Of a stretch of DNA of 64,000 bases, positions 6,802 through 50,536 are shown piece after piece. Below the pieces are notes generated by a model that saw only the letters and a list, made by a program, of their open reading frames with translations, made no database searches and was not told the DNA's origin. Source of the stretch: an uncultured Thalassospiraceae bacterium (GTDB lineage: Bacteria > Pseudomonadota > Alphaproteobacteria > Rhodospirillales > 2-02-FULL-58-16); assembly GCA_964632795.1 (NCBI GenBank), contig CAZWEZ010000002.1:28702-92701 (forward strand), in the 5' to 3' direction. Within the stretch, counting starts at the first letter, position 1. The number at the start of each line of letters is the position of its first letter. A program made the translations under genes and the position numbers.

Positions 6802-7806
6802 ATGACCTCGACCGCTCCTCCTGCTTCCACCTCCGGGTTCCCCCTCGACGTCCCGGACCTCTCGATCTCGGTGCGCCAGACCTTCGGCATCGACAGCGAC
6901 ATGAAGGTCCCCGCCTTCTCCGAGAGCGAAGAGCACGTGCCGGACATCGACGGCGCCTACCAGTTCGACCACGACACCTCGCTCGCCATCCTGTCGGGCT
7001 TCGCCTACAACCGGCGGGTCATGATCCAGGGCTACCACGGGACCGGCAAGTCGACCCACATCGAGCAGGTCGCCGCAAGGCTCAACTGGCCCTGCATCCG
7101 GATCAACCTGGACAGCCACATCAGCCGCATCGACCTGGTCGGCAAGGACGCCATCGTGTTGCGTGACGGCAAGCAGGTCACCGAGTTCCGCGAGGGCATG
7201 CTGCCGTGGGCGATCCAGCACCCCATCGCCATGGTGTTCGACGAATACGACGCCGGGCGCCCCGACGTGATGTTCGTGATCCAGCGGGTGCTGGAGGTCG
7301 AGGGCAAGCTGACGCTGCTCGACCAGAACCGGGTGATGACCCCGCACCCCTACTTCCGCTTGTTCTCGACCACCAACACCATCGGCCTGGGCGACACCAC
7401 CGGGCTCTACCACGGCACCCAGCAGATCAACCAGGGCCAGATGGACCGCTGGAACGTGGTGGCGACGCTCAACTACCTGCACCACGACGACGAGGTCAAG
7501 ATCGTGCTCTCCAAGGTCCCCTCCTACGACACCAAGAAGGGCCGCGAGACCATCGGCACCATGGTCGAAATGGCCGACCTGACCCGCTCCGGCTTCGTCA
7601 ACGGCGACATCTCGACGGTGATGTCGCCGCGCACGGTCATCAACTGGGCCGAGAACACCGACATCTTCAGGGACAAGGGGTTCGCCTTCCGACTCACCTT
7701 CCTCAACAAGTGCGACGAGCTCGAACGCCCGGTGGTCGCCGAGTACTACCAGCGCTGCTTCGGCGAGGAACTGCCCGAATCGGCGAGCCGGGTGACCTCG
7801 GCCTGA
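6802..7806 (+). CDS. cobS: CobS-type AAA ATPase (aerobic cobaltochelatase subunit family)
   Basis: A 334-aa product with Walker [10 protein letters not shown] and Walker [14 protein letters not shown]. The overall text matches my memory of CobS, and cobT follows directly. Confidence 0.85.
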
Positions 7807-7818
7807 GATGTCCCTGAC

Positions 7819-9645
7819 GTGAACCCGTCGGAAGCCCCCGCGGATCTGATCAAACGGGTCACCTCGGCGACCCTCAAGGCGGTGTCCGGGCGCCGCGAGG
7901 TGAGCGTCGACTTCACCCCCGCCGCCAACGCCGGGCTGAGCGGCCAGGCGGCCCACCTGCCGAGCCCGCCGCCCCAGCCCACCCGGCGCGGGATGCGCCA
8001 ACTGAGGGGGGCCGCCGATTCCCTGGCCCTGCGCCTGCGCTACCACGACGAAGGCCTGCACCGGCGCCGGGCGCCGACGGGAGGCGAGGCCGGGACGGTG
8101 TTCGACGCCGTCGAGCAGGCCCGCGTCGAGGCGTTGGGCTGCCGCCGCATGGCCGGGGTCGCCGACAACCTGAGCGGCCTGCTCGAGGACCGCTGCCAGG
8201 GCTACGCCGGAACCAGCGAGCGGGTCTCCGAACAGCTCCCCGAGGCGCTGTCGCTGGTCGTCCGCGAAAGCCTGACCGGGGCCCCGCCGCCCCAGGCCGC
8301 CGCCGCCATGGTCGAGCTGTGGCGGCCGTGGTTCGACAAGCGCGTCGGCGCCCAGTTGCAGCGCCTCGGCGAACGCCTCGACGACCAGCAGGGGTTCGCC
8401 GAGGTCGCCGCCGAGATGATCCGCATCCTCGACCTGATCGAGGAAGAGGGGCCGCTGGACGAGGATTCGGAGCCCGACCAGCCCGAGGACCAGGACCAGC
8501 CCGAGAGCCGCGAGGCCGACTCCGAGGCCGAGGGGTCGATGGCCGGCGAGGACGCCGAGGGCGATTTCGACGACGGCGCCGAGACGGCGCCCGGCGAGGA
8601 TGACCTGATGATGCCCGGCGACGAGGAGCCGGCCGGCCCCAGGCCCCCCGGGTCGCCGTGGCCCGGCAACGCCCCCCGGGGGCCGGTCTATAACGCCTAC
8701 AGCCCGAACTTCGACGAGGTGGTGGAGGCCGCCTCGCTGTGCAGTGCCGAGGAACTGGACCGCCTCAGGGCGCAACTGGACCAACAGTTGTCCCACCTCC
8801 AAGGCGTGGTGGCGCGGCTCGCCAACCGTCTCCAGCGACGCCTCCTGGCCAAGCAGACCCGATCCTGGGAGTTCGACCAGGAGGAAGGCCTGTTGGACGC
8901 CGGCCGGCTGTCGCGCGTCGTCGTCGATCCGGCCCACCCGCTGTCCTACAAGCTGGAGAAGGAGACCGACTTCCGCGACACCGTGGTCAGCCTGCTGATC
9001 GACAACTCGGGCTCGATGCGCGGCCGCCCCATAACGGTGGCCGCGATGAGCACCGACATCCTGGCCCGGACCCTGGAAAGGTGCGCGGTCAAGGTCGAGA
9101 TCCTGGGCTTCACCACCCGCGCCTGGAAGGGCGGGGCGGCGCGCGAGAAGTGGGTCGCCGACGGCAAGCCCAAGAACCCGGGCCGGCTCAACGATCTGCG
9201 CCACATCGTCTACAAGGGCGCCGACATGCCGTGGCGCCGCACCCGCAAGAACCTGGGGCTGATGCTGCGCGAGGGCCTGCTCAAGGAGAACATCGACGGC
9301 GAGGCCCTGCTGTGGGCCCACAACCGGCTGCTGGCGAGGCCCGAGCAGCGCCGAATCCTGATGGTGATCTCCGACGGCGCGCCGGTCGACGACGCCACCC
9401 TGTCGGCCAACCCCGGCAACTACCTGGAGACCCACCTGCGCCAGGTCATCGCGTGGATCGAGGCCCGCTCGCCGGTCGAGCTGACGGCGATCGGCATCGG
9501 CCACGACGTAACCCGCTACTACCACCGGGCGGTGACCCTCACGGATGCCGAGGAACTGGGCGGCACCATGATGCAGAACCTGATGGACCTGTTCGACGAA
9601 GAAACCCAACCCTCTGGCCACCGCCGCCGGGCGGGCAGGATGTGA
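7819..9645 (+). CDS. cobT: CobT-type VWA protein (cobaltochelatase subunit family)
   Basis: A 608-aa product with a GTG start. It has an acidic low-complexity linker ([22 protein letters not shown]) and a C-terminal VWA/MIDAS region ([11 protein letters not shown]). It is paired with cobS. Confidence 0.85.
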
Positions 9646-9663
9646 AGATAGCCGTTGTCGATT

Positions 9664-9681
9664 TATAACAATTTTGTTATA
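9664..9681. promoter_or_regulatory. Inverted repeat TATAACAA-TT-TTGTTATA, candidate toxin-antitoxin operator
   Basis: Perfect 8-bp arms with a 2-bp spacer, in an AT-rich patch. It sits 3 bp upstream of the ATG of the toxin remnant and antitoxin gene. Confidence 0.4.
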
Positions 9682-9683
9682 TT

Positions 9684-9737
9684 ATGGCTTGGGCCGTAGA
9701 GACCCTCGACAAACGGGTGGACCGTGAGATCAAAGCT
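9684..9737 (+). pseudogene. Remnant of a RelE/HigB-family toxin gene (first ~18 codons only)
   Basis: ATG at 9684 encodes MAWAVETLDKRVDREIKA, which resembles N-termini of RelE/ParE/HigB-type toxins. The frame then runs out of register through the antitoxin gene and stops at 9812. Confidence 0.35.
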
Positions 9738-10020
9738 CCGCGATCTGAAGAAGGTCCTTCTCCAGGACCCCGAAACCCGCGCCGAATACGACGCCCGCGC
9801 TTCGGAGTATGAACTTGCCGGCACCCTCATCGCGGCCCGCAAGACGGCGGGCCTGACCCAGCAACAGGTGGCGGAACGGATGGGCACTAAACAAGCCGCC
9901 GTCGCCCGCATGGAAAGCGGCGCCCAAAAACCAAGCTTCAAAAGCATCGAACGCTACGCCAAAGCCACCGGCCACAAAGCCCACATAACCCTGACCCCGG
10001 CGGGCCACGATAACGCATGA
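9724..10020 (+). CDS. HTH XRE-family antitoxin (HigA-like), orphan
   Basis: A 98-aa product with a GTG start. It has the HTH motif GLTQQQVAERMGTKQAAVARMESG and an N-terminal DPETRAEYDA segment typical of HigA-like antitoxins. Confidence 0.8.
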   Translation: MRSKLRDLKKVLLQDPETRAEYDARASEYELAGTLIAARKTAGLTQQQVAERMGTKQAAVARMESGAQKPSFKSIERYAKATGHKAHITLTPAGHDNA

Positions 10021-10150
10021 GGGGTTTCGGGCGGGGGTCTGTATGGCAAGGAACTTGAGTTCCGATGCGCTGCTCAGGCAACATCTACTCCAGCTACGGC
10101 TATTTGGCCCACAGCAAACATTCCGTTGAAAAAGTGTTTTGATGGATTGC

Positions 10151-11872
10151 CTATTGATGGTTATGATCGATGTCATACTCATCTAGCTCTGCGTGGATTG
10201 ATCCATTACTTTCCAAGAACTGCAAAGGTTCAACCAGCATTCCCCGTCGCTTTGCAGCCTTTTTGAAGAGTCTCCGAATAAAGATCCTCCGAGCTATGTG
10301 TATTTTAGCAGCATCAAAAATCCGGTCTTCAAGAAATGTTACATTTGCATCTAACATTTTTGAAAAAACCGGGTCTCCAGTAACGGCGGAGATAATGTCT
10401 TTGTCCTTTGTCCACTTTCGCCTTACTGCTTCGTAATACGGAAGCCAATTTTCACTGTAGACGCCAGTTTTTTTGAATTCTGATCGCCATCCCCATTTTG
10501 AAAGTGAAACCGATAATAGACCGCGCTCCCGGAGCATACCGAGCATTGCAAAGACAACTGAATTTGGCCTTTTATCGAAAGGAGGCAATTCTATTTCGTC
10601 AAAGCTAATCCGTAAAACAGCTCCTGTGAGCAGGCACCATGTTATTTCGCTATCATGGGCATGTTGTATGTTAGTTCTGATTGTTGTTTTCACCCAAGTT
10701 ACTACCCTCTTTCTAATATCCTGATCACCACATATCGACTGGTGATTAATTAGAAACGCTGCTACATGATGCATGCATGACGGGAAATCCCGCGCTAACC
10801 GGAACATTGCTTCAAGAACCAGCTCATAGTTCTCTTGAAAAATATTGAGCCGCGATAGGCGTCGACATGCCCAACTCGCTGGTGCGCCTGTTTCAGCTTC
10901 TGTACAGAAATGCAAGGTGTGATCAACAAAACGGTATATATCACTCGCTTGCTTAGCTTGATATTTGCTAGAAAGAACGACTGAATCGAAGTCAAGTTTC
11001 CATTTTTCCTTAGCTAACGAACGAGATTTAGAAACAAACGTCTTTTTTTCATTCAGTTGCAGATTGAACTTCCACAAGGCAGCACGTAAGGCACCAAGCG
11101 CCGCTTCCGCCGTATTCACGTCATCAAACCCAATCACGTAATCGTCTAAGAGACGGAACGCGGGGCTACCGCGAATCAAAGATGAAAGATTCTTGTCAGC
11201 TTCTACACCTGCCAAAAGAACTTCCGCGATGATCCGCGATGTATCGGGGCCAACGGGAATTCCGAAAGTTTCTCTCGACTGACATAGCTGAAGAGCCTTA
11301 TCAAGATCATTGGACCAATGATTGTTTAACTTGCTTCGATTTTTTTCAATCCATTCTTTAACATTTTCCTTCCCAAGAACCGCCCACGGTATCGAGTGCG
11401 TATAAATCGTGTAAAAGAATCGAGAAATATCTGCTTGCAACACGTATGGACATTTCGAGTAAAGACTTGCAGCTAGTACGTCTTTCTTACGAAAATCTAA
11501 CCCTTCAAACGCCTTTTGTTTTTTTGGATCCTCGCTTGTGCGATAAAGCGATTTACCTCCTTCCCTTATGATTTTTTTTATTTTGGAACGATTTTTTGTT
11601 ATCAGAAGTGATAAATTCAATTGTGCGAGGGGATGTACCAAGGCAAGATTTCGACGTCCACTAACAGTTCGAGGGAATGTAAATGTTTCGTAATTTGTCG
11701 ATCCCTTAATTAGGTCTTTCTGTAATTGTTTCAAAAAATTATATTCGGTATCGCAAAAAGCAGAAAAATATTTTGCTGTTACTACTGGCGGGATTTCCAT
11801 CGGAAGGTAGGCCGTACGAATGAGCGCGGCCAAGAATTCGCGCTGTCTAGATGGTCGTGATGGTGATTTCAT
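10151..11872 (-). CDS. Stand-alone reverse transcriptase of the UG/Abi (defence-associated) type
   Basis: The track ORF is 10151..11884 (TTG start); ATG at 11872 is the more likely start. RT motifs in track numbering are SGRRNLALVHP (74-84), QADISRFFYTIYTHSIPWA (150-168, motif A Asp152), GIPVGPDTSRIIAEVLL (208-224, motif B) and FRLLDDYVIGF (243-253, Asp247-Asp248 at nt 11141-11146). Residues about 290-577 are helical-looking with no motif I recognise. The gene is strongly AT-rich compared with its flanks. Confidence 0.8.
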   Translation of the reverse strand: MKSPSRPSRQREFLAALIRTAYLPMEIPPVVTAKYFSAFCDTEYNFLKQLQKDLIKGSTNYETFTFPRTVSGRRNLALVHPLAQLNLSLLITKNRSKIKKIIREGGKSLYRTSEDPKKQKAFEGLDFRKKDVLAASLYSKCPYVLQADISRFFYTIYTHSIPWAVLGKENVKEWIEKNRSKLNNHWSNDLDKALQLCQSRETFGIPVGPDTSRIIAEVLLAGVEADKNLSSLIRGSPAFRLLDDYVIGFDDVNTAEAALGALRAALWKFNLQLNEKKTFVSKSRSLAKEKWKLDFDSVVLSSKYQAKQASDIYRFVDHTLHFCTEAETGAPASWACRRLSRLNIFQENYELVLEAMFRLARDFPSCMHHVAAFLINHQSICGDQDIRKRVVTWVKTTIRTNIQHAHDSEITWCLLTGAVLRISFDEIELPPFDKRPNSVVFAMLGMLRERGLLSVSLSKWGWRSEFKKTGVYSENWLPYYEAVRRKWTKDKDIISAVTGDPVFSKMLDANVTFLEDRIFDAAKIHIARRIFIRRLFKKAAKRRGMLVEPLQFLESNGSIHAELDEYDIDHNHQ

Positions 11873-11921
11873 TGGGTTGTCCAATCGTTAAAGAATCGCG
11901 TGGATAAAAAATTGCACCTGT

Positions 11922-11949
11922 ACTTTACGCTGATAGGAATAATTGTCGA
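11922..11949 (-). promoter_or_regulatory. Candidate sigma70-like promoter for the RT gene
   Basis: On the minus strand the sequence reads TCGACA (11949-11944), a 16-nt spacer, then TAAAGT (11927-11922). This lies about 50 nt upstream of the RT start. The call is by eye only. Confidence 0.3.
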
Positions 11950-12019
11950 TAGCATAGGTTATCGGCCAGCCAAGAAATACTACCCCTCCCTCCCCCTCAC
12001 CGCCAAGTCTCCGCAGACG

Positions 12020-12054
12020 AAAAACCGGCGCGCCCCTGATGGACGCGCCGGTTT
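12020..12054 (-). terminator. Rho-independent terminator hairpin
   Basis: A 9-bp GC stem (ACCGGCGCG at 12024-12032 with CGCGCCGGT at 12044-12052) encloses an 11-nt loop. On the minus strand it is followed by a T5 run (the complement of A5 at 12020-12024). It lies downstream of the flavoprotein gene and upstream of the RT promoter. Confidence 0.6.
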
Positions 12055-12078
12055 GTTCCGACTTCGAGGTTCCGAGAG

Positions 12079-12101
12079 TTCCGGGGACATGACACTTAAT
12101 T
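12079..12101. repeat. Solo copy of the RAYT-flanking REP sequence
   Basis: TTCCGGGGACATGACACTTAATT matches the 24-bp inverted repeat at 33370-33393 (TTCCGGTGACATGATACTTAATTG) with 2 mismatches. Confidence 0.55.
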
Positions 12102-12294
12102 CCGACAATTGAATTACCAATAATCACCCATGACAATCGCTCCCGCTCCACCTCATCCCGTAACCTCTGAAATTCCATTCGATTCTTCGCGGAGCCTTAT
12201 CTTTGCTTATCCGCGTTCATCCGTGTCCATCCGCCCTGCGGCCCAAAGCCTCCGGGCGACGGGCCGTGTCCATCCGTGTCTCCCCTCCCCCCCC

Positions 12295-12999
12295 TCACCG
12301 CCAGTACCCGGGACGGGGCGGTTCTTCGCCTTCCTGGGCGGCTTCCGGGCTGATCAGGGTGACTTGGTTGTCGGTGGGCTCGATCCTGAACAGGTCGCGG
12401 CCTAGTTGGCGGGACGATTCGATGGGGTTGGAGGGGTCGTCGCGGACTTCGCCGCGTTTGTCGCCGATGCCGGTCACCATGCCGACCAGCGAATGGTCGA
12501 GGTAGCGGCACAGCTCGGCCATCTGCTGGACGATCCCGAGGCGCACCGAGAAGGCGTAATCCTCGGCGCTCAGCAGCAGCGCCGCCCGCTTGCCGGTCAG
12601 CCTTCGGGCATTCTCCGCCGCCCCGGGATGGTTGCCCGAAACGTAACAGTAGTAGCGGTCGATGAAGCTTTTGAGGGGGCCCGAAATCCCGTACCACCAG
12701 ATCGGCGTCGCGTAGACGATGGCATCGGCCGGCAGCACCTTGTCGAGGAACAACCCGGCGTAGCCGTCGTCGATCGTACACCGGTCCTCGGCGTCGCGGC
12801 ACTTGGTGCAGTCGCGCAGGTGGCCGTCCATGTGGTCGGCCAGGTCGACCAGTTCGGCCGCCGCCCCGGCTTCCGCCGCCCCCTCGATCAGGGCCTCGGC
12901 GAGGAGCCGCGAGTTGCCGTCGCGGCGCGGGCTGGAGCTTACCGCCAGCACCCGGGGCGGGTCGTTGCGGGGTTCGTATTTACGGTTGTCCTCGCTCAT
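12295..12999 (-). CDS. NADPH-dependent FMN reductase / flavodoxin-like flavoprotein
   Basis: A 234-aa product. VLAVSSSPRRDGNSRLLAEA and AIVYATPIWWYGISGPLKSFIDR are typical of the flavodoxin_2 / FMN_red fold. Confidence 0.8.
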   Translation of the reverse strand: MSEDNRKYEPRNDPPRVLAVSSSPRRDGNSRLLAEALIEGAAEAGAAAELVDLADHMDGHLRDCTKCRDAEDRCTIDDGYAGLFLDKVLPADAIVYATPIWWYGISGPLKSFIDRYYCYVSGNHPGAAENARRLTGKRAALLLSAEDYAFSVRLGIVQQMAELCRYLDHSLVGMVTGIGDKRGEVRDDPSNPIESSRQLGRDLFRIEPTDNQVTLISPEAAQEGEEPPRPGYWR

Positions 13000-33383: not shown

Positions 33384-34139
33384 TACTTAATTGTCTCTCT
33401 CACTCTTTCTGTGCTAGGTTTTTCTCATGGCACGATTTGCGCGGGTGGTGGCGCCGGGCATTCCTCATCATGTGACGCAGCGGGGCAACCGGCGGCAGAC
33501 CACATTTTTCAACGATGAAGACTATGCGGCCTACCTGGATTTGTTGGCCGAGCAGTTGGCCCGCGCCTCGGTGGCGCTGTGGGCCTACTGCCTGATGCCG
33601 AACCACGTGCACCTGATCCTGGTGCCGGAAACGGAAGACGGCCTGGCCGTCGCCCTGGGCGAGGCACACCGCCGCTACACCCGACGAATCAACTCCCGCG
33701 AGGGTTGGCGGGGTTTTCTGTGGCAGGGCCGTTTTGGCTCGTTTCCCCTGGAAGGCGATCACCTGCTGGCGGCGGCGCGCTATGTGGAATTGAACCCCGT
33801 GCGCGCAAAGTTGGCGAGGGGGCCCGAGGACTGGCCGTGGTCCAGCGCCCGCGCCCATCTGGCGGGGCGCGACGGCGGGGCGCTGTCGGTCCGCCCTCTT
33901 CTCGATCGGGTCGGCGACTGGCGGGCCTTTCTCGACGGCGGTCTTGGCGCGGAGGCTCTCGACGCCCTGCGCCGCCATGAGCGGACAGGCCGGCCCCTCG
34001 GCTCGACGGCTTTCGTGGAACGGCTGGAAGGTATGCTCGGCCGCCCCCTCAAGAGGCGCAAACCGGGACCCAAGCCGGCGGCGGAATGAACGGGGATGTT
34101 TGCGGCGCGCAAGGGCAATTAAGTATCATGTCACCGGAA
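33370..34139. mobile_element. RAYT unit: Y1 transposase gene bracketed by perfect 24-bp inverted repeats
   Basis: TTCCGGTGACATGATACTTAATTG at 33370-33393 is the exact reverse complement of 34116-34139. The stop codon of the RND gene (33381-33383) lies inside the left repeat. Confidence 0.7.
33427..34089 (+). CDS. REP-associated tyrosine transposase (RAYT, IS200-like Y1 transposase)
   Basis: A 220-aa product. It has the HUH motif context CLMPNHVHLILVP and the catalytic Tyr context ARYVELNPVRAKL. The N-terminal GIPHHVTQRGN is typical of this family. Confidence 0.8.
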   Translation: MARFARVVAPGIPHHVTQRGNRRQTTFFNDEDYAAYLDLLAEQLARASVALWAYCLMPNHVHLILVPETEDGLAVALGEAHRRYTRRINSREGWRGFLWQGRFGSFPLEGDHLLAAARYVELNPVRAKLARGPEDWPWSSARAHLAGRDGGALSVRPLLDRVGDWRAFLDGGLGAEALDALRRHERTGRPLGSTAFVERLEGMLGRPLKRRKPGPKPAAE

Positions 34140-34169
34140 CTCAGTTTCGATTAGGCGCCGCCCCGGGCC

Positions 34170-47593: not shown

Positions 47594-48344
47594 TCACCTC
47601 GATTTAACGCCTCGGCCGGGGACACGGACCCGTTCAAGCAGATCGAGAAATTCTTGGACGTCAGCTTGGGCAAGATCATTGAACGGGTATGGACCGCCGA
47701 CCCATTTCTCGTGCACTTCGTTCATCAGAAATTTCCATCCCCTCATGTGAGACTTCCGGAACAATGGAAAAAAGCCAGTTCTCAAATTGTTTGGCCTCGA
47801 TCCGACCGGAATCAACTCTCTTGTGGCTCTCGCTTGCTGGCCAGTAGATCAGAGAGAGTTCCCAATCCCATCCAAACTCTTCAGGGAGTTCATTCCATAG
47901 GCTGGACTTCACGACAAATCCTAGAGGGCAATAAACGGAAAGTTCATCGTTGCGGAACGCCTTTAATAAATGCCCTTCTGTGTTTTCGAAACGCTCCCAT
48001 CTTCCGTAGTCGTCGGTCTCGTATTTTCGCACCTCGCCAATCTTGTTCAGCCAGGAAAAAACATCTCCCTGCCTGTTTTTTAGGTTAGCAATCTCCGAGT
48101 TAATCCATGAAATTTCATCTTTCCCCAGGACTTTTCTTAATTCATATTGCTTAGCATTAATCTCAAGATTGATAGCTTCAAGCTCTCGCTCAAGTGGAGC
48201 TCTCGCCTCCTTGATCGGTCTAGGATCAACAGCCTTACGGCCCCAAATTTCATAACCATTCTATTCTGAACCATACAACCGCATTCCAAGCGCATTAAAG
48301 GCATCCGACAGAAAGAAATCTCGGTGAAAACTTGATGAATTCAT
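47594..48344 (-). pseudogene. Disrupted partner gene of the HEPN-like gene (in-frame TAG plus homopolymer frameshift)
   Basis: The ATG at 48344 overlaps the upstream stop (ATGA). Codon 28 is TAG (48261-48263), yet the same frame continues as protein-like text into track ORF 47676..48032. At the A6 run (47768-47773) the plausible reading shifts into track ORF 47594..47815. I recognise no family. Confidence 0.55.
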
Positions 48345-49510
48345 GTGTTGCTATGCCTTTTGAATATCTTTGAGTTTTCTAGTCGAAGATCCATTACCGC
48401 TGGCCACTCACCCGGTGGCATTGCATTCAGATAACCGCCTGCCAAATGGCGGACAGCTTGAATGTAGATTTCAACAGAATTCTCTTGGTCCCGACCAATC
48501 AGATAAGGTTCTCGCCCGTGCGCAATTTGATTCCGATCAATCGTTAAATTCTTGAGTTTTTCACGTACCGGCTTCTCCACAAGATTTGTCGTTCGAATAG
48601 CCTTCGCTAATTTCGAAGGCGTACGTTTGAGTATTGCGATACTATGCTTACTGAGCATGATCTCGGTGGCGATACAGAGGTTGAGGATAGCTTTATCGTC
48701 CCGACCAGCCATGTAATCAGCCATCCCATCGTAAAATGCTAGCATTCCTTGGTCGGCTTTCCGTCTTTCTTGGGTATGATGCGCCGCAAGAAGCCACCAC
48801 CCCTTATTAAGTGGACTACCAAATCCAAGGGAAGGCTGATATTGGACAGCACCATACCATGTCGATTCAATTTCACCTGCTCCGCGATGCCGTAACTCTG
48901 TGGCAATGTTGAAATCTTTTGTGATCGCCCCACCCATTCTTAATGGCCCAAGCATCGGATTGTGGGACGCCCTAATCCACCATTGATGCGTATACTGGCT
49001 TATGTGATCTAGCAGAAGGTTCAGTATTTCTATCGCGTCTACCCCGTGTTGGACATCAAGGCGGAATGCTCGGCACCATTTAGCAGTGTCACTAACCCCG
49101 TGTTCCATCCTGACACCACGGACGGCACTTGATGGGAGTTGAACGGCTCTTTCGACACACTGTGTACCCTCCGGAACGAGTACTTCATTGAAAGCTCCAG
49201 ATGTTTCCGACTTCTCATCAACCGGAAAAGGGGGGTAAATTCGGACGATTTTTCCATCTCGTTGAATAGTCAAAACATCGGTAACTTCACCGACATCCAC
49301 CAAAATTGATGTTGGCCTGAGATATATGTGAGATTCAAAATCTGGTGCCAAGCTATCATGGTAAGCCTCGATTTTGCTATCCGACAAGTTGGGCCATTCA
49401 AGCCCTTTTTCGAGACTTTTCTCTTCGGACATGTGAGCTTTAACCCCATATTGGCACCAATCGCGGGAGATTTCTCCGACCGGAAAATGATCACTGTTTA
49501 TGTTTGACAC
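48341..49510 (-). CDS. HEPN-like (Rx4H) protein, possibly ApeA-like defence/toxin RNase
   Basis: The track ORF is 48341..49555. I prefer GTG at 49510, which is preceded by AGGAGG (49517-49522) with a 6-nt spacer. The C-terminal ~130 aa is a helical bundle carrying LTIDRNQIAHG (R341-x4-H346 in track numbering, nt 48518-48535). The N-terminal ~270 aa is unassigned. The gene is AT-rich. Confidence 0.6.
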   Translation of the reverse strand: MSNINSDHFPVGEISRDWCQYGVKAHMSEEKSLEKGLEWPNLSDSKIEAYHDSLAPDFESHIYLRPTSILVDVGEVTDVLTIQRDGKIVRIYPPFPVDEKSETSGAFNEVLVPEGTQCVERAVQLPSSAVRGVRMEHGVSDTAKWCRAFRLDVQHGVDAIEILNLLLDHISQYTHQWWIRASHNPMLGPLRMGGAITKDFNIATELRHRGAGEIESTWYGAVQYQPSLGFGSPLNKGWWLLAAHHTQERRKADQGMLAFYDGMADYMAGRDDKAILNLCIATEIMLSKHSIAILKRTPSKLAKAIRTTNLVEKPVREKLKNLTIDRNQIAHGREPYLIGRDQENSVEIYIQAVRHLAGGYLNAMPPGEWPAVMDLRLENSKIFKRHSNT

Positions 49511-49792
49511 CCCTTGCCTCCTACTAACCGTATAAGGTTTTCTATAGTTTTTCACTGTATCCTAGAAGAATGCAATTGGTTGATTTGTGATGGCATTATA
49601 CCTCGGCCACTTCTAGCTTCTCAATTCTGCATTACTATCTAGCAGAACCAGATAGCAGCGTGTCATATTCACCACAGGCTACGCTTTTTTTCTCCTCCTG
49701 GTGCTTCCACAGCGCTTCCACGAATGATTATTGTGTTGAGCATGAGGCACAGAAAAACCCCATAACCAATTGAGGTAATGGGGTTAATTTTG

Positions 49793-50536
<744 letters not shown>

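Follow-up and report, generated by a model that had tools for sequence, protein, structure and literature searches.

What kind of defence system, if any, is represented by a solitary reverse transcriptase (RT) gene lying in a low-GC segment of an otherwise GC-rich genome? The question is raised by a minus-strand gene in a 64,000-nucleotide (nt) stretch of contig CAZWEZ010000002.1 from an uncultured Thalassospiraceae bacterium, referred to below as the window. The initial annotation of this DNA had described the gene as a stand-alone UG/Abi-type RT with an unassigned C-terminal half, and as the best candidate in the window for a poorly characterised defence system. Our analysis indicates, with good confidence, that the gene encodes a divergent DRT6 (UG12) member of the class 1 UG/Abi RTs, carried in a horizontally acquired single-gene cassette of approximately 1.9 kb, with a mechanism that can be inferred from those of DRT6 and DRT4.

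The longest open reading frame (ORF) at the locus occupies 10151..11884 on the minus strand and encodes 577 amino acids (aa) from a TTG start at 11884, with an in-frame stop immediately 5' of it. An ATG at 11872 is the start used in close homologues and in two independent gene calls, and yields a protein of 573 aa beginning with MKSPSRP. The putative DRT6/UG12-family gene is accordingly placed at 10151..11872, with its stop codon at 10151-10153, and the length of 573-577 aa given originally was exact. Residue numbers hereafter follow the 577-aa form. The RT fingers and palm (residues ~57-300, 10985..11716, minus strand) form a mixed alpha/beta core in the structural model presented below, and the RT active site is intact, with both the motif A aspartate and the motif C xxDD present. 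Motif A is ADISRFFYTIYTHSIPWA at residues 151-168, with D152 at 11429-11431; it is followed by GIPVGPDTSRIIAEVLL at residues 208-224, which is the GIPVGPDTS motif region at 11213-11263, and by the motif C LLDD at residues 245-248, with D247-D248 at 11141-11146. The ordered motifs first read from the sequence are thus located where they had been placed. Among the aligned family sequences, D152 and D247 are present in 112/112 and D248 in 111/112.

The family assignment relies on profile scores, full-length alignment, fold ranking and C-terminal motifs, all of which favour DRT6. The best PADLOC result is obtained with the Drt6 (UG12) profile PDLC03748, which yields 412.9 bits (E 5.1e-124) and spans residues 17-521 of the protein and positions 3-480 of the 511 in the profile, followed by 322.8 bits for the next profile, 231.5 for UG15, 165.9 for UG30 and 135 for AbiK. 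When the protein was compared by phmmer with solved structures, the best match was 9wy8, a DRT6 RT fused to maltose-binding protein (MBP) and present as six chains, with E 4.3e-45 over residues 17-521; DRT4/UG15 came second (7e-23, residues 71-384 only), with AbiK and Abi-P2 next. To see whether the Drt6 profile stands for the characterised Sphingopyxis DRT6, 492 residues of the 9wy8 RT were rebuilt from the printed alignment. After removal of the MBP offset, the YVDD of the rebuilt protein falls at D223/D224, which corresponds to the DRT6 catalytic mutant of PMC12783706. This protein scores 602 bits with UG12, 254 with UG15 and 230 with UG30, the same order (UG12 > UG15 > UG30) as that found for the window protein (413, 231 and 166 bits), and BLASTP aligns the two over 506 residues with 26% identity and E 6e-49.

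The PADLOC models named Drt4 deserve a separate remark. They score 178-323 bits on the window protein, and one of them, PDLC02179, gives the Sphingopyxis DRT6 726 bits, above the 602 bits of the Drt6 model itself. Judging from these scores, PDLC02179 is in effect a UG12-like model, which accounts for the high "Drt4" scores of the window protein. Automated annotation that relies on PDLC02179 and PDLC02177 may therefore mislabel DRT6-type genes as DRT4.

The C-terminal half, residues 290-577, was modelled together with the rest of the protein by AlphaFold 2 (AF2) as a monomer, from an alignment of the 38 sequences of its own clade. The model has a mean predicted local distance difference test (pLDDT) score of 88 and a predicted template modelling (TM) score, pTM, of 0.87. 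It presents an alpha-repeat domain of ~12 helices at residues ~309-512 (10349..10960, minus strand; pLDDT >90), a short beta hairpin at residues 525-537, and a disordered tail at residues 541-577 (10154..10264, minus strand; pLDDT <50) that contains the acidic-Tyr motif ELDEYDID. In a Foldseek comparison with the PDB, the top match is 9wy8_A, "Cryo-EM structure of the hexameric DRT6", with E 8.8e-27, a TM score of 0.90 on the target and a root-mean-square deviation (rmsd) of 3.0 Å over 512 columns. It is followed, again in TM score on the target, by UG15/DRT4 (0.73-0.80), AbiK (~0.6), Abi-P2 (0.6-0.7) and AbiA (~0.4), while group II intron RTs and those from diversity-generating retroelements (DGRs) and retrons match the RT core only. 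In the 112-sequence alignment, the clade, 94 distant relatives and the characterised DRT6 all conserve E413, W416, W480, E485 and W491. Given these shared signature residues, residues 290-577 are not an unknown module, as originally supposed; they are the alpha-repeat domain and flexible tail of class 1 UG/Abi RTs, as found in DRT6, DRT4, AbiK and Abi-P2.

Two other RT classes were considered and rejected. TIGR04416, the group II intron RT/maturase model, scores 34.5 bits on the RT core only, against a cut-off of 300, no group II intron was matched by Rfam in 9400-12700, and the C-terminal half is an alpha-repeat domain. For a retron RT, there is likewise no Rfam match, no conserved neighbour, and only weak similarity to retron structures (TM ~0.3 on the query). 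The initial distinction of this gene from group II intron and retron RTs is borne out, as is its description as a stand-alone UG/Abi-type RT. What changes is the novelty of the system: the protein matches with confidence, C-terminal domain included, an already characterised single-gene DRT family. UG12 has been named DRT6, is phage-protective and partly characterised, and has a cryo-EM structure (9wy8).

An exhaustive search of 1.84 billion representatives returned 3270 relatives at E <= 1e-3, of which 464 also pass E <= 1e-30. Identity falls in a step, from at least 37% within the protein's own clade to 25-31% with everything else. The Drt6 profile is matched by 38/38 clade members, and in a neighbour-joining (NJ) tree of 112 sequences the clade is monophyletic (16/16 representatives) and basal to the set that holds the characterised DRT6. 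The RT-region distance is ~0.82 to both DRT6 and DRT4, a saturated value, so the tree does not separate the two families.

The clade also differs from the wider family ahead of motif A, where the only conserved hydroxyls are those of S112 and position 114. The S112 column is Ser or Thr in 93% of the sequences. Y114 is invariant in the clade (38/38 sequences, 16/16 representatives), and the same column in the wider family is Ser/Thr in 75/94 and Phe in 11/94, with Ser in the Sphingopyxis DRT6; F126 and G128 are further clade-specific invariants. Based on this conservation pattern, the S112-L113-Y114 loop (11543..11551, minus strand) is presented as a candidate protein-priming site only.

The low GC content that first drew attention to the gene was confirmed. 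The RT gene has a GC content of 0.425, compared with 0.685 and 0.682 in the 5 kb flanks, so the contrast of an AT-rich segment with GC-rich flanks holds at ~0.42 against ~0.68; it is one of two such dips in the whole window. Per 50 nt, values are 0.26-0.54 inside the cassette and 0.56-0.76 outside. L001 and L002, the two closest loci, resemble the window in DNA sequence from ~10103 to ~11984, and their neighbourhoods are unrelated to that of the window. The three loci have in common only the RT gene and the DNA next to it, ~100 nt on the 5' side and ~50 nt on the 3' side. The cassette is therefore placed at approximately 10103..11984 and is a bare gene unit with no recognisable mobility gene. 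The island proposed originally at 10021-12008 stands as a low-GC unit, but its borders were too wide when measured by the GC steps and the ends of similarity.

Because no empty site was recovered from either flank, the borders rest on the GC content and on the similarity to L001 and L002. On the right flank, the closest flavodoxin homologues lie on contigs shorter than 1.3 kb and the next ones (~62% identity) lie in other neighbourhoods. On the left flank, the best metagenomic CobT relatives are at most 63% identical, and none of 80 loci had an HTH, RT, flavodoxin or MttB gene nearby.

Some short repeats were observed around the right border. A 22-nt C-rich direct repeat occurs as CCCTCCCTCCCCCTCACCGCCA at 11984-12005 and as CCCCTCCCCCCCCTCACCGCCA at 12282-12303 (86% identical), with one copy exactly at the right border of the cassette and the other overlapping the stop codon of the flavodoxin-like gene; a pattern search of the window gave 3 matches where chance would predict 0.3. 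It could be the remnant of an integration event, yet the left border has no matching copy. A 26-nt sequence at 12076-12101, in the spacer between the flavodoxin-like gene and the cassette, recurs inverted 22 kb away at 34117-34142 with 92% identity. No further similarity was found around either copy, and the recurrence may reflect a shared regulatory site or a chance match. A REP copy had been reported beside the gene in the initial annotation. This was rejected: when the border sequences were searched for copies dispersed elsewhere, short isolated matches were all that appeared, and the dispersed repeat families of the window have no copy at the cassette borders.

Upstream of the gene, the sole block conserved with L001 and L002 is CTTGGC-N16-CTATCG (11947..11974, minus strand), which we take to be a promoter from its likeness to the sigma-70-type consensus. 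Since this element sits at 11974-11947, the actual 5' untranslated region (5'UTR) is probably at most 75 nt rather than 130 nt long. A GC-rich hairpin at 12022..12054 (inverted repeat I14, 14-nt arms, 93% complementary) has a T-run after it when read on the minus strand, and for this reason it probably terminates the flavodoxin-like gene upstream (12295-12999). The hairpin lies outside the cassette and sets the upstream limit of any RT leader. Hence, of the leader of about 130 nt after a terminator that had been read from the sequence, the hairpin is present, but it is outside the cassette, and the promoter-like block shortens the leader.

This region had also been regarded as a possible site of a cis-encoded non-coding RNA (ncRNA), which our results make unlikely. 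Searched at E <= 1, Rfam has no match in 9400-12700, shuffled sequences are at least as stable when folded as the 145-nt leader (z = +1.28), and upstream DNA conservation is limited to ~100 nt in the two closest loci. In four related loci (L008, L006, L005 and L022) only 12-79 nt separate the RT gene from the end of the closest ORF upstream, and a gap of this size leaves no space for an upstream ncRNA of the DRT2 or DRT9 style.

The mechanism assigned to the protein, with moderate confidence and by analogy, is of the DRT6/DRT4 type. UG12 was named DRT6 after RT-dependent protection of E. coli against T5 and ZL-19 (PMC9226505). The Sphingopyxis DRT6 acts by abortive infection, oligomerises, and makes template-independent DNA covalently attached to the protein; it inhibits growth on co-expression with the T5 DNA-binding protein ORF55 and is toxic in a delta-sbcB background (PMC12783706). 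DRT6 is a hexamer (preprint 10.64898/2026.04.29.721553; PDB title of 9wy8). In DRT4, the hexamer primes on Tyr125 and makes random single-stranded DNA (ssDNA), which ExoI degrades and ORF55 protects. According to published reports, class 1 enzymes such as DRT6 and DRT4 work without an ncRNA.

By extension, the window protein, with its N-terminal RT (fingers/palm), C-terminal alpha-repeat domain and disordered acidic tail, would need neither a partner protein nor an ncRNA. It would oligomerise, probably as a hexamer, and use one of its own hydroxyl side chains as the primer for ssDNA synthesis without a template. In uninfected cells, the product would be cleared by a host 3'-5' ssDNA exonuclease. 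On infection, a phage ssDNA-binding protein would shield the 3' end, and the resulting build-up of ssDNA would lead to cell death or arrest ahead of phage release, i.e., abortive infection.

The neighbourhood of the gene was compared across 24 loci, namely the window, two metagenomic loci whose proteins are 80% and 72% identical, and 21 loci from named genomes, all 21 of which are alphaproteobacterial. An all-versus-all ORF comparison within 3.5 kb of the RT found no neighbour family in more than 3/24 loci, in agreement with the initial view that there is no partner effector gene. The RT gene lies 10-25 GC points under its surroundings in almost all loci, and these surroundings are unrelated housekeeping or island genes: CobT, an HTH (helix-turn-helix) antitoxin, an FMN reductase-like flavoprotein and MttB in the window, and insertion sequence (IS) elements, DUF6602 or a SIR2-HerA pair elsewhere. 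No phage record matched the RT. The plasmid and replicon matches are one Azospirillum 1.8 Mb replicon and two distant Bacillus plasmids, and IMG/VR has three contigs at 25-38% identity; these matches neither strengthen nor weaken the DRT6 assignment.

Beside the RT gene, and convergent with it, lies a HigB/HigA-like remnant on the plus strand (9664..10020). The remnant starts with an operator-like palindrome, the 8-nt inverted repeat TATAACAA-TT-TTGTTATA at 9664-9681, continues with ~13 codons of a HigB-like toxin start (MAWAVETLDKRVD, 9684-9725), and runs out of frame into an intact HTH_3 antitoxin gene (9724-10020; Pfam HTH_3, E 1.5e-11). The antitoxin was rightly called an orphan, as it stands intact behind only the beginning of a toxin gene. 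In L005, whose RT is 56% identical, a full toxin and antitoxin occupy the same convergent position (7741-8420). The antitoxin was considered as a component of the system and rejected, because it is adjacent in 2/24 loci only; the remnant is treated as a neighbour.

Further observations concern individual loci. A SIR2-like protein and a HerA-type ATPase (DUF87) adjoin the RT homologue in L008 (2463-5989) and L020 (7835-11258), and a fragment of a SIR2-like protein adjoins that of L022; these neighbours look like a defence-island context for the RT family. The RT homologues of L017, L018, L022, L024 and L025 are broken by early in-frame stops beyond which tblastn similarity continues, and are either pseudogenes or frameshift errors in metagenome-assembled genomes (MAGs). 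L013 and L025, from one MAG, are two nearly identical copies of the locus.

Several results weigh against assigning the protein and its mechanism to DRT6. The identity to the sole characterised DRT6 is only 26%, and Pfam RVT_1 is barely over its cut-off (30.5 versus 29.6 bits, residues 136-285). The clade branches deeply beside the main UG12 set and not inside it, in a crude NJ tree built on saturated distances. The priming residue is not transferable from either model: DRT4 Y125 aligns to a variable column, which is L129 here, and the clade-invariant Y114 is replaced by Ser in the Sphingopyxis DRT6 and by Phe in some of the wider family. In addition, this GC-rich host, with its alphaproteobacterial relatives, may lack counterparts of the trigger and exonuclease described in E. 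coli (T5 ORF55 and SbcB).

An alternative is that the clade is a separate class 1 UG/Abi group, sister to UG12, with the same architecture, its own priming residue Tyr114 and possibly another product or trigger. The monophyly of the clade (16/16), the identity step between its inside and its outside, its basal position in the NJ tree, the invariance of Y114 against Ser/Thr in the main set, and the clade-specific F126 and G128 all speak for such a group. However, the UG12 profile is the best by ~90 bits over the next and by ~180 bits over the UG15-derived PDLC03752, DRT6 provides both the full-length alignment and the best match in fold, and it has identical signature motifs in its C-terminal part. 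Given that UG groups are themselves defined by profile and tree, we consider a separate group rather unlikely. That the gene belongs to DRT4 (UG15) instead is extremely improbable, although Drt4 is the best NCBIfam match, several PADLOC "Drt4" models score well, and DRT4 structures are the second-best folds. The NCBIfam Drt4 equivalog reaches only 190.4 bits, well under its cut-off of 450, the UG15-derived profile scores 231 bits against 413 for UG12, and PDLC02179 recognises the characterised DRT6 itself. Moreover, the phmmer alignment to DRT4 covers residues 71-384 alone, and Y125 is not conserved.

Another alternative is that the RT uses an ncRNA or template encoded in cis in its 5' leader or 3' flank, as in DRT2, DRT3, DRT9 and DRT10. 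The ~100 nt upstream and ~50 nt downstream that accompany the gene in the three closest loci, and the leader after a terminator noted initially, speak for this reading. It is nevertheless highly unlikely: the conserved block is promoter-like and conservation does not extend past the closest relatives, Rfam is blank, the leader is less stable than its shuffles, the upstream gap closes to 12-79 nt in four loci, DRT6 and DRT4 are reported to be ncRNA-free, and the RT profiles of DRT2, DRT3, DRT9 and DRT10 score far lower. The gene could also be read as a horizontally transferred relic that is decaying or silent and no longer has a function, and the interrupted copies in 5/23 related loci, the deletion of the adjacent toxin gene and a composition not ameliorated toward the host would fit this. 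Such a reading is barely credible for a full-length ORF that keeps all family-invariant residues and a promoter-like element, and the interrupted copies come mostly from long-read MAGs, in which frameshifts are probably a common assembly error.

With DRT6 retained as the preferred assignment, the tail of the protein merits attention. An aromatic residue (Tyr/Phe/Trp) is found in the last four residues in 81% of the clade (n=89) and in 78% of the wider set (n=93), compared with ~35% for internal windows. In the last twelve positions, acidic residues are twofold commoner and basic residues scarcer. The C-termini of four distant members read ...DDAIPF, ...DDDDLPF, ...EEEVPF and ...YEIPF, and the window protein has ELDEYDID followed by HNHQ. 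Ends of the ...[ILV]PF type, a few of them with the canonical SSB-like ...D-[ILV]-P-F, resemble the C-terminal tip of single-stranded DNA-binding protein (SSB) that binds ExoI. The DRT4 paper notes the C-terminus only as flexible and unmodelled, and the DRT10 preprint discusses such a tip for the phage trigger only. Speculatively, the family tail may recruit SSB-interacting nucleases, and it may be connected with the sbcB/ExoI dependence known from the literature. A wider proposal is that the clade is a functionally distinct deep DRT6-like lineage that primes on Tyr114, and that the acidic-aromatic tail tip of the family mimics the SSB tip and tethers ExoI-type nucleases or other SSB-interacting proteins to the enzyme. 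This proposal is rather unlikely, yet if true, SSB-tip mimicry would explain in physical terms why DRT4 and DRT6 depend on sbcB, as published.

The other low-GC dip of the window is an island at 47600-49870 (GC 0.46-0.50 versus 0.65-0.70), which abuts the window's only tRNA gene, tRNA-Met CAT (49792-49866, minus strand). Its ORFs of 404 aa (48341-49555, minus strand) and 118 aa (47676-48032, minus strand) have no Pfam or PADLOC match at E <= 0.01, and the island is possibly linked to the tRNA gene, with these ORFs as uncharacterised cargo.

In terms of annotation, the gene and ~200 close relatives, now labelled "hypothetical protein" or "RNA-directed DNA polymerase", can become DRT6-family defence RTs. 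They form a coherent deep sub-lineage, found so far in alphaproteobacterial genomes only and moving as a bare single-gene cassette, which may help in picking further DRT6 representatives for biochemistry. No new principle is involved, as the literature already describes the DRT6 family together with its fold and, in outline, its mechanism.

In comparison with known systems, the closest is the Sphingopyxis sp. DRT6 (PHR10625.1, 9wy8). It provides the best profile, the full-length alignment, the same RT plus alpha-repeat architecture and the best fold, both proteins carry the catalytic residues and the C-terminal signature residues (HxxE.xW; WL..YEA.R..W), and both are encoded by single-gene loci without an ncRNA. 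They differ in sequence, the window protein being in a separate deep and so far solely alphaproteobacterial clade, and in having Tyr114 in place of Ser; the enzyme activities are known from the Sphingopyxis protein, whereas the window clade is known from sequence and model.

DRT4 (UG15, E. coli WP_031606642.1; 9vdo, 9vdv and 9l9s) is also encoded by a single gene, belongs to the class 1 RTs and combines an alpha-repeat domain with a tail that is flexible at the C-terminus; its R75, D149, D240 and D241 correspond exactly to R78, D152, D247 and D248 of the window protein. With ~20% identity, an alignment that covers only part of the protein, a score under the NCBIfam Drt4 cut-off, an unconserved priming Tyr125 and a weaker fold match at TM 0.76-0.80, it is more distant than DRT6, yet the mechanism is probably best modelled on it, with a hexamer, protein-primed random ssDNA, and control by ExoI and a phage ssDNA-binding protein. 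AbiK (7r06/7r07) and Abi-P2 (7r08) are further removed, with 15-18% identity, TM ~0.6, different oligomer geometries and priming tyrosines in the fingers loop (Tyr44 and Tyr61). They nonetheless share the overall class 1 fold and carry out protein-primed, template-independent DNA synthesis in abortive infection, as proposed here for the window protein.

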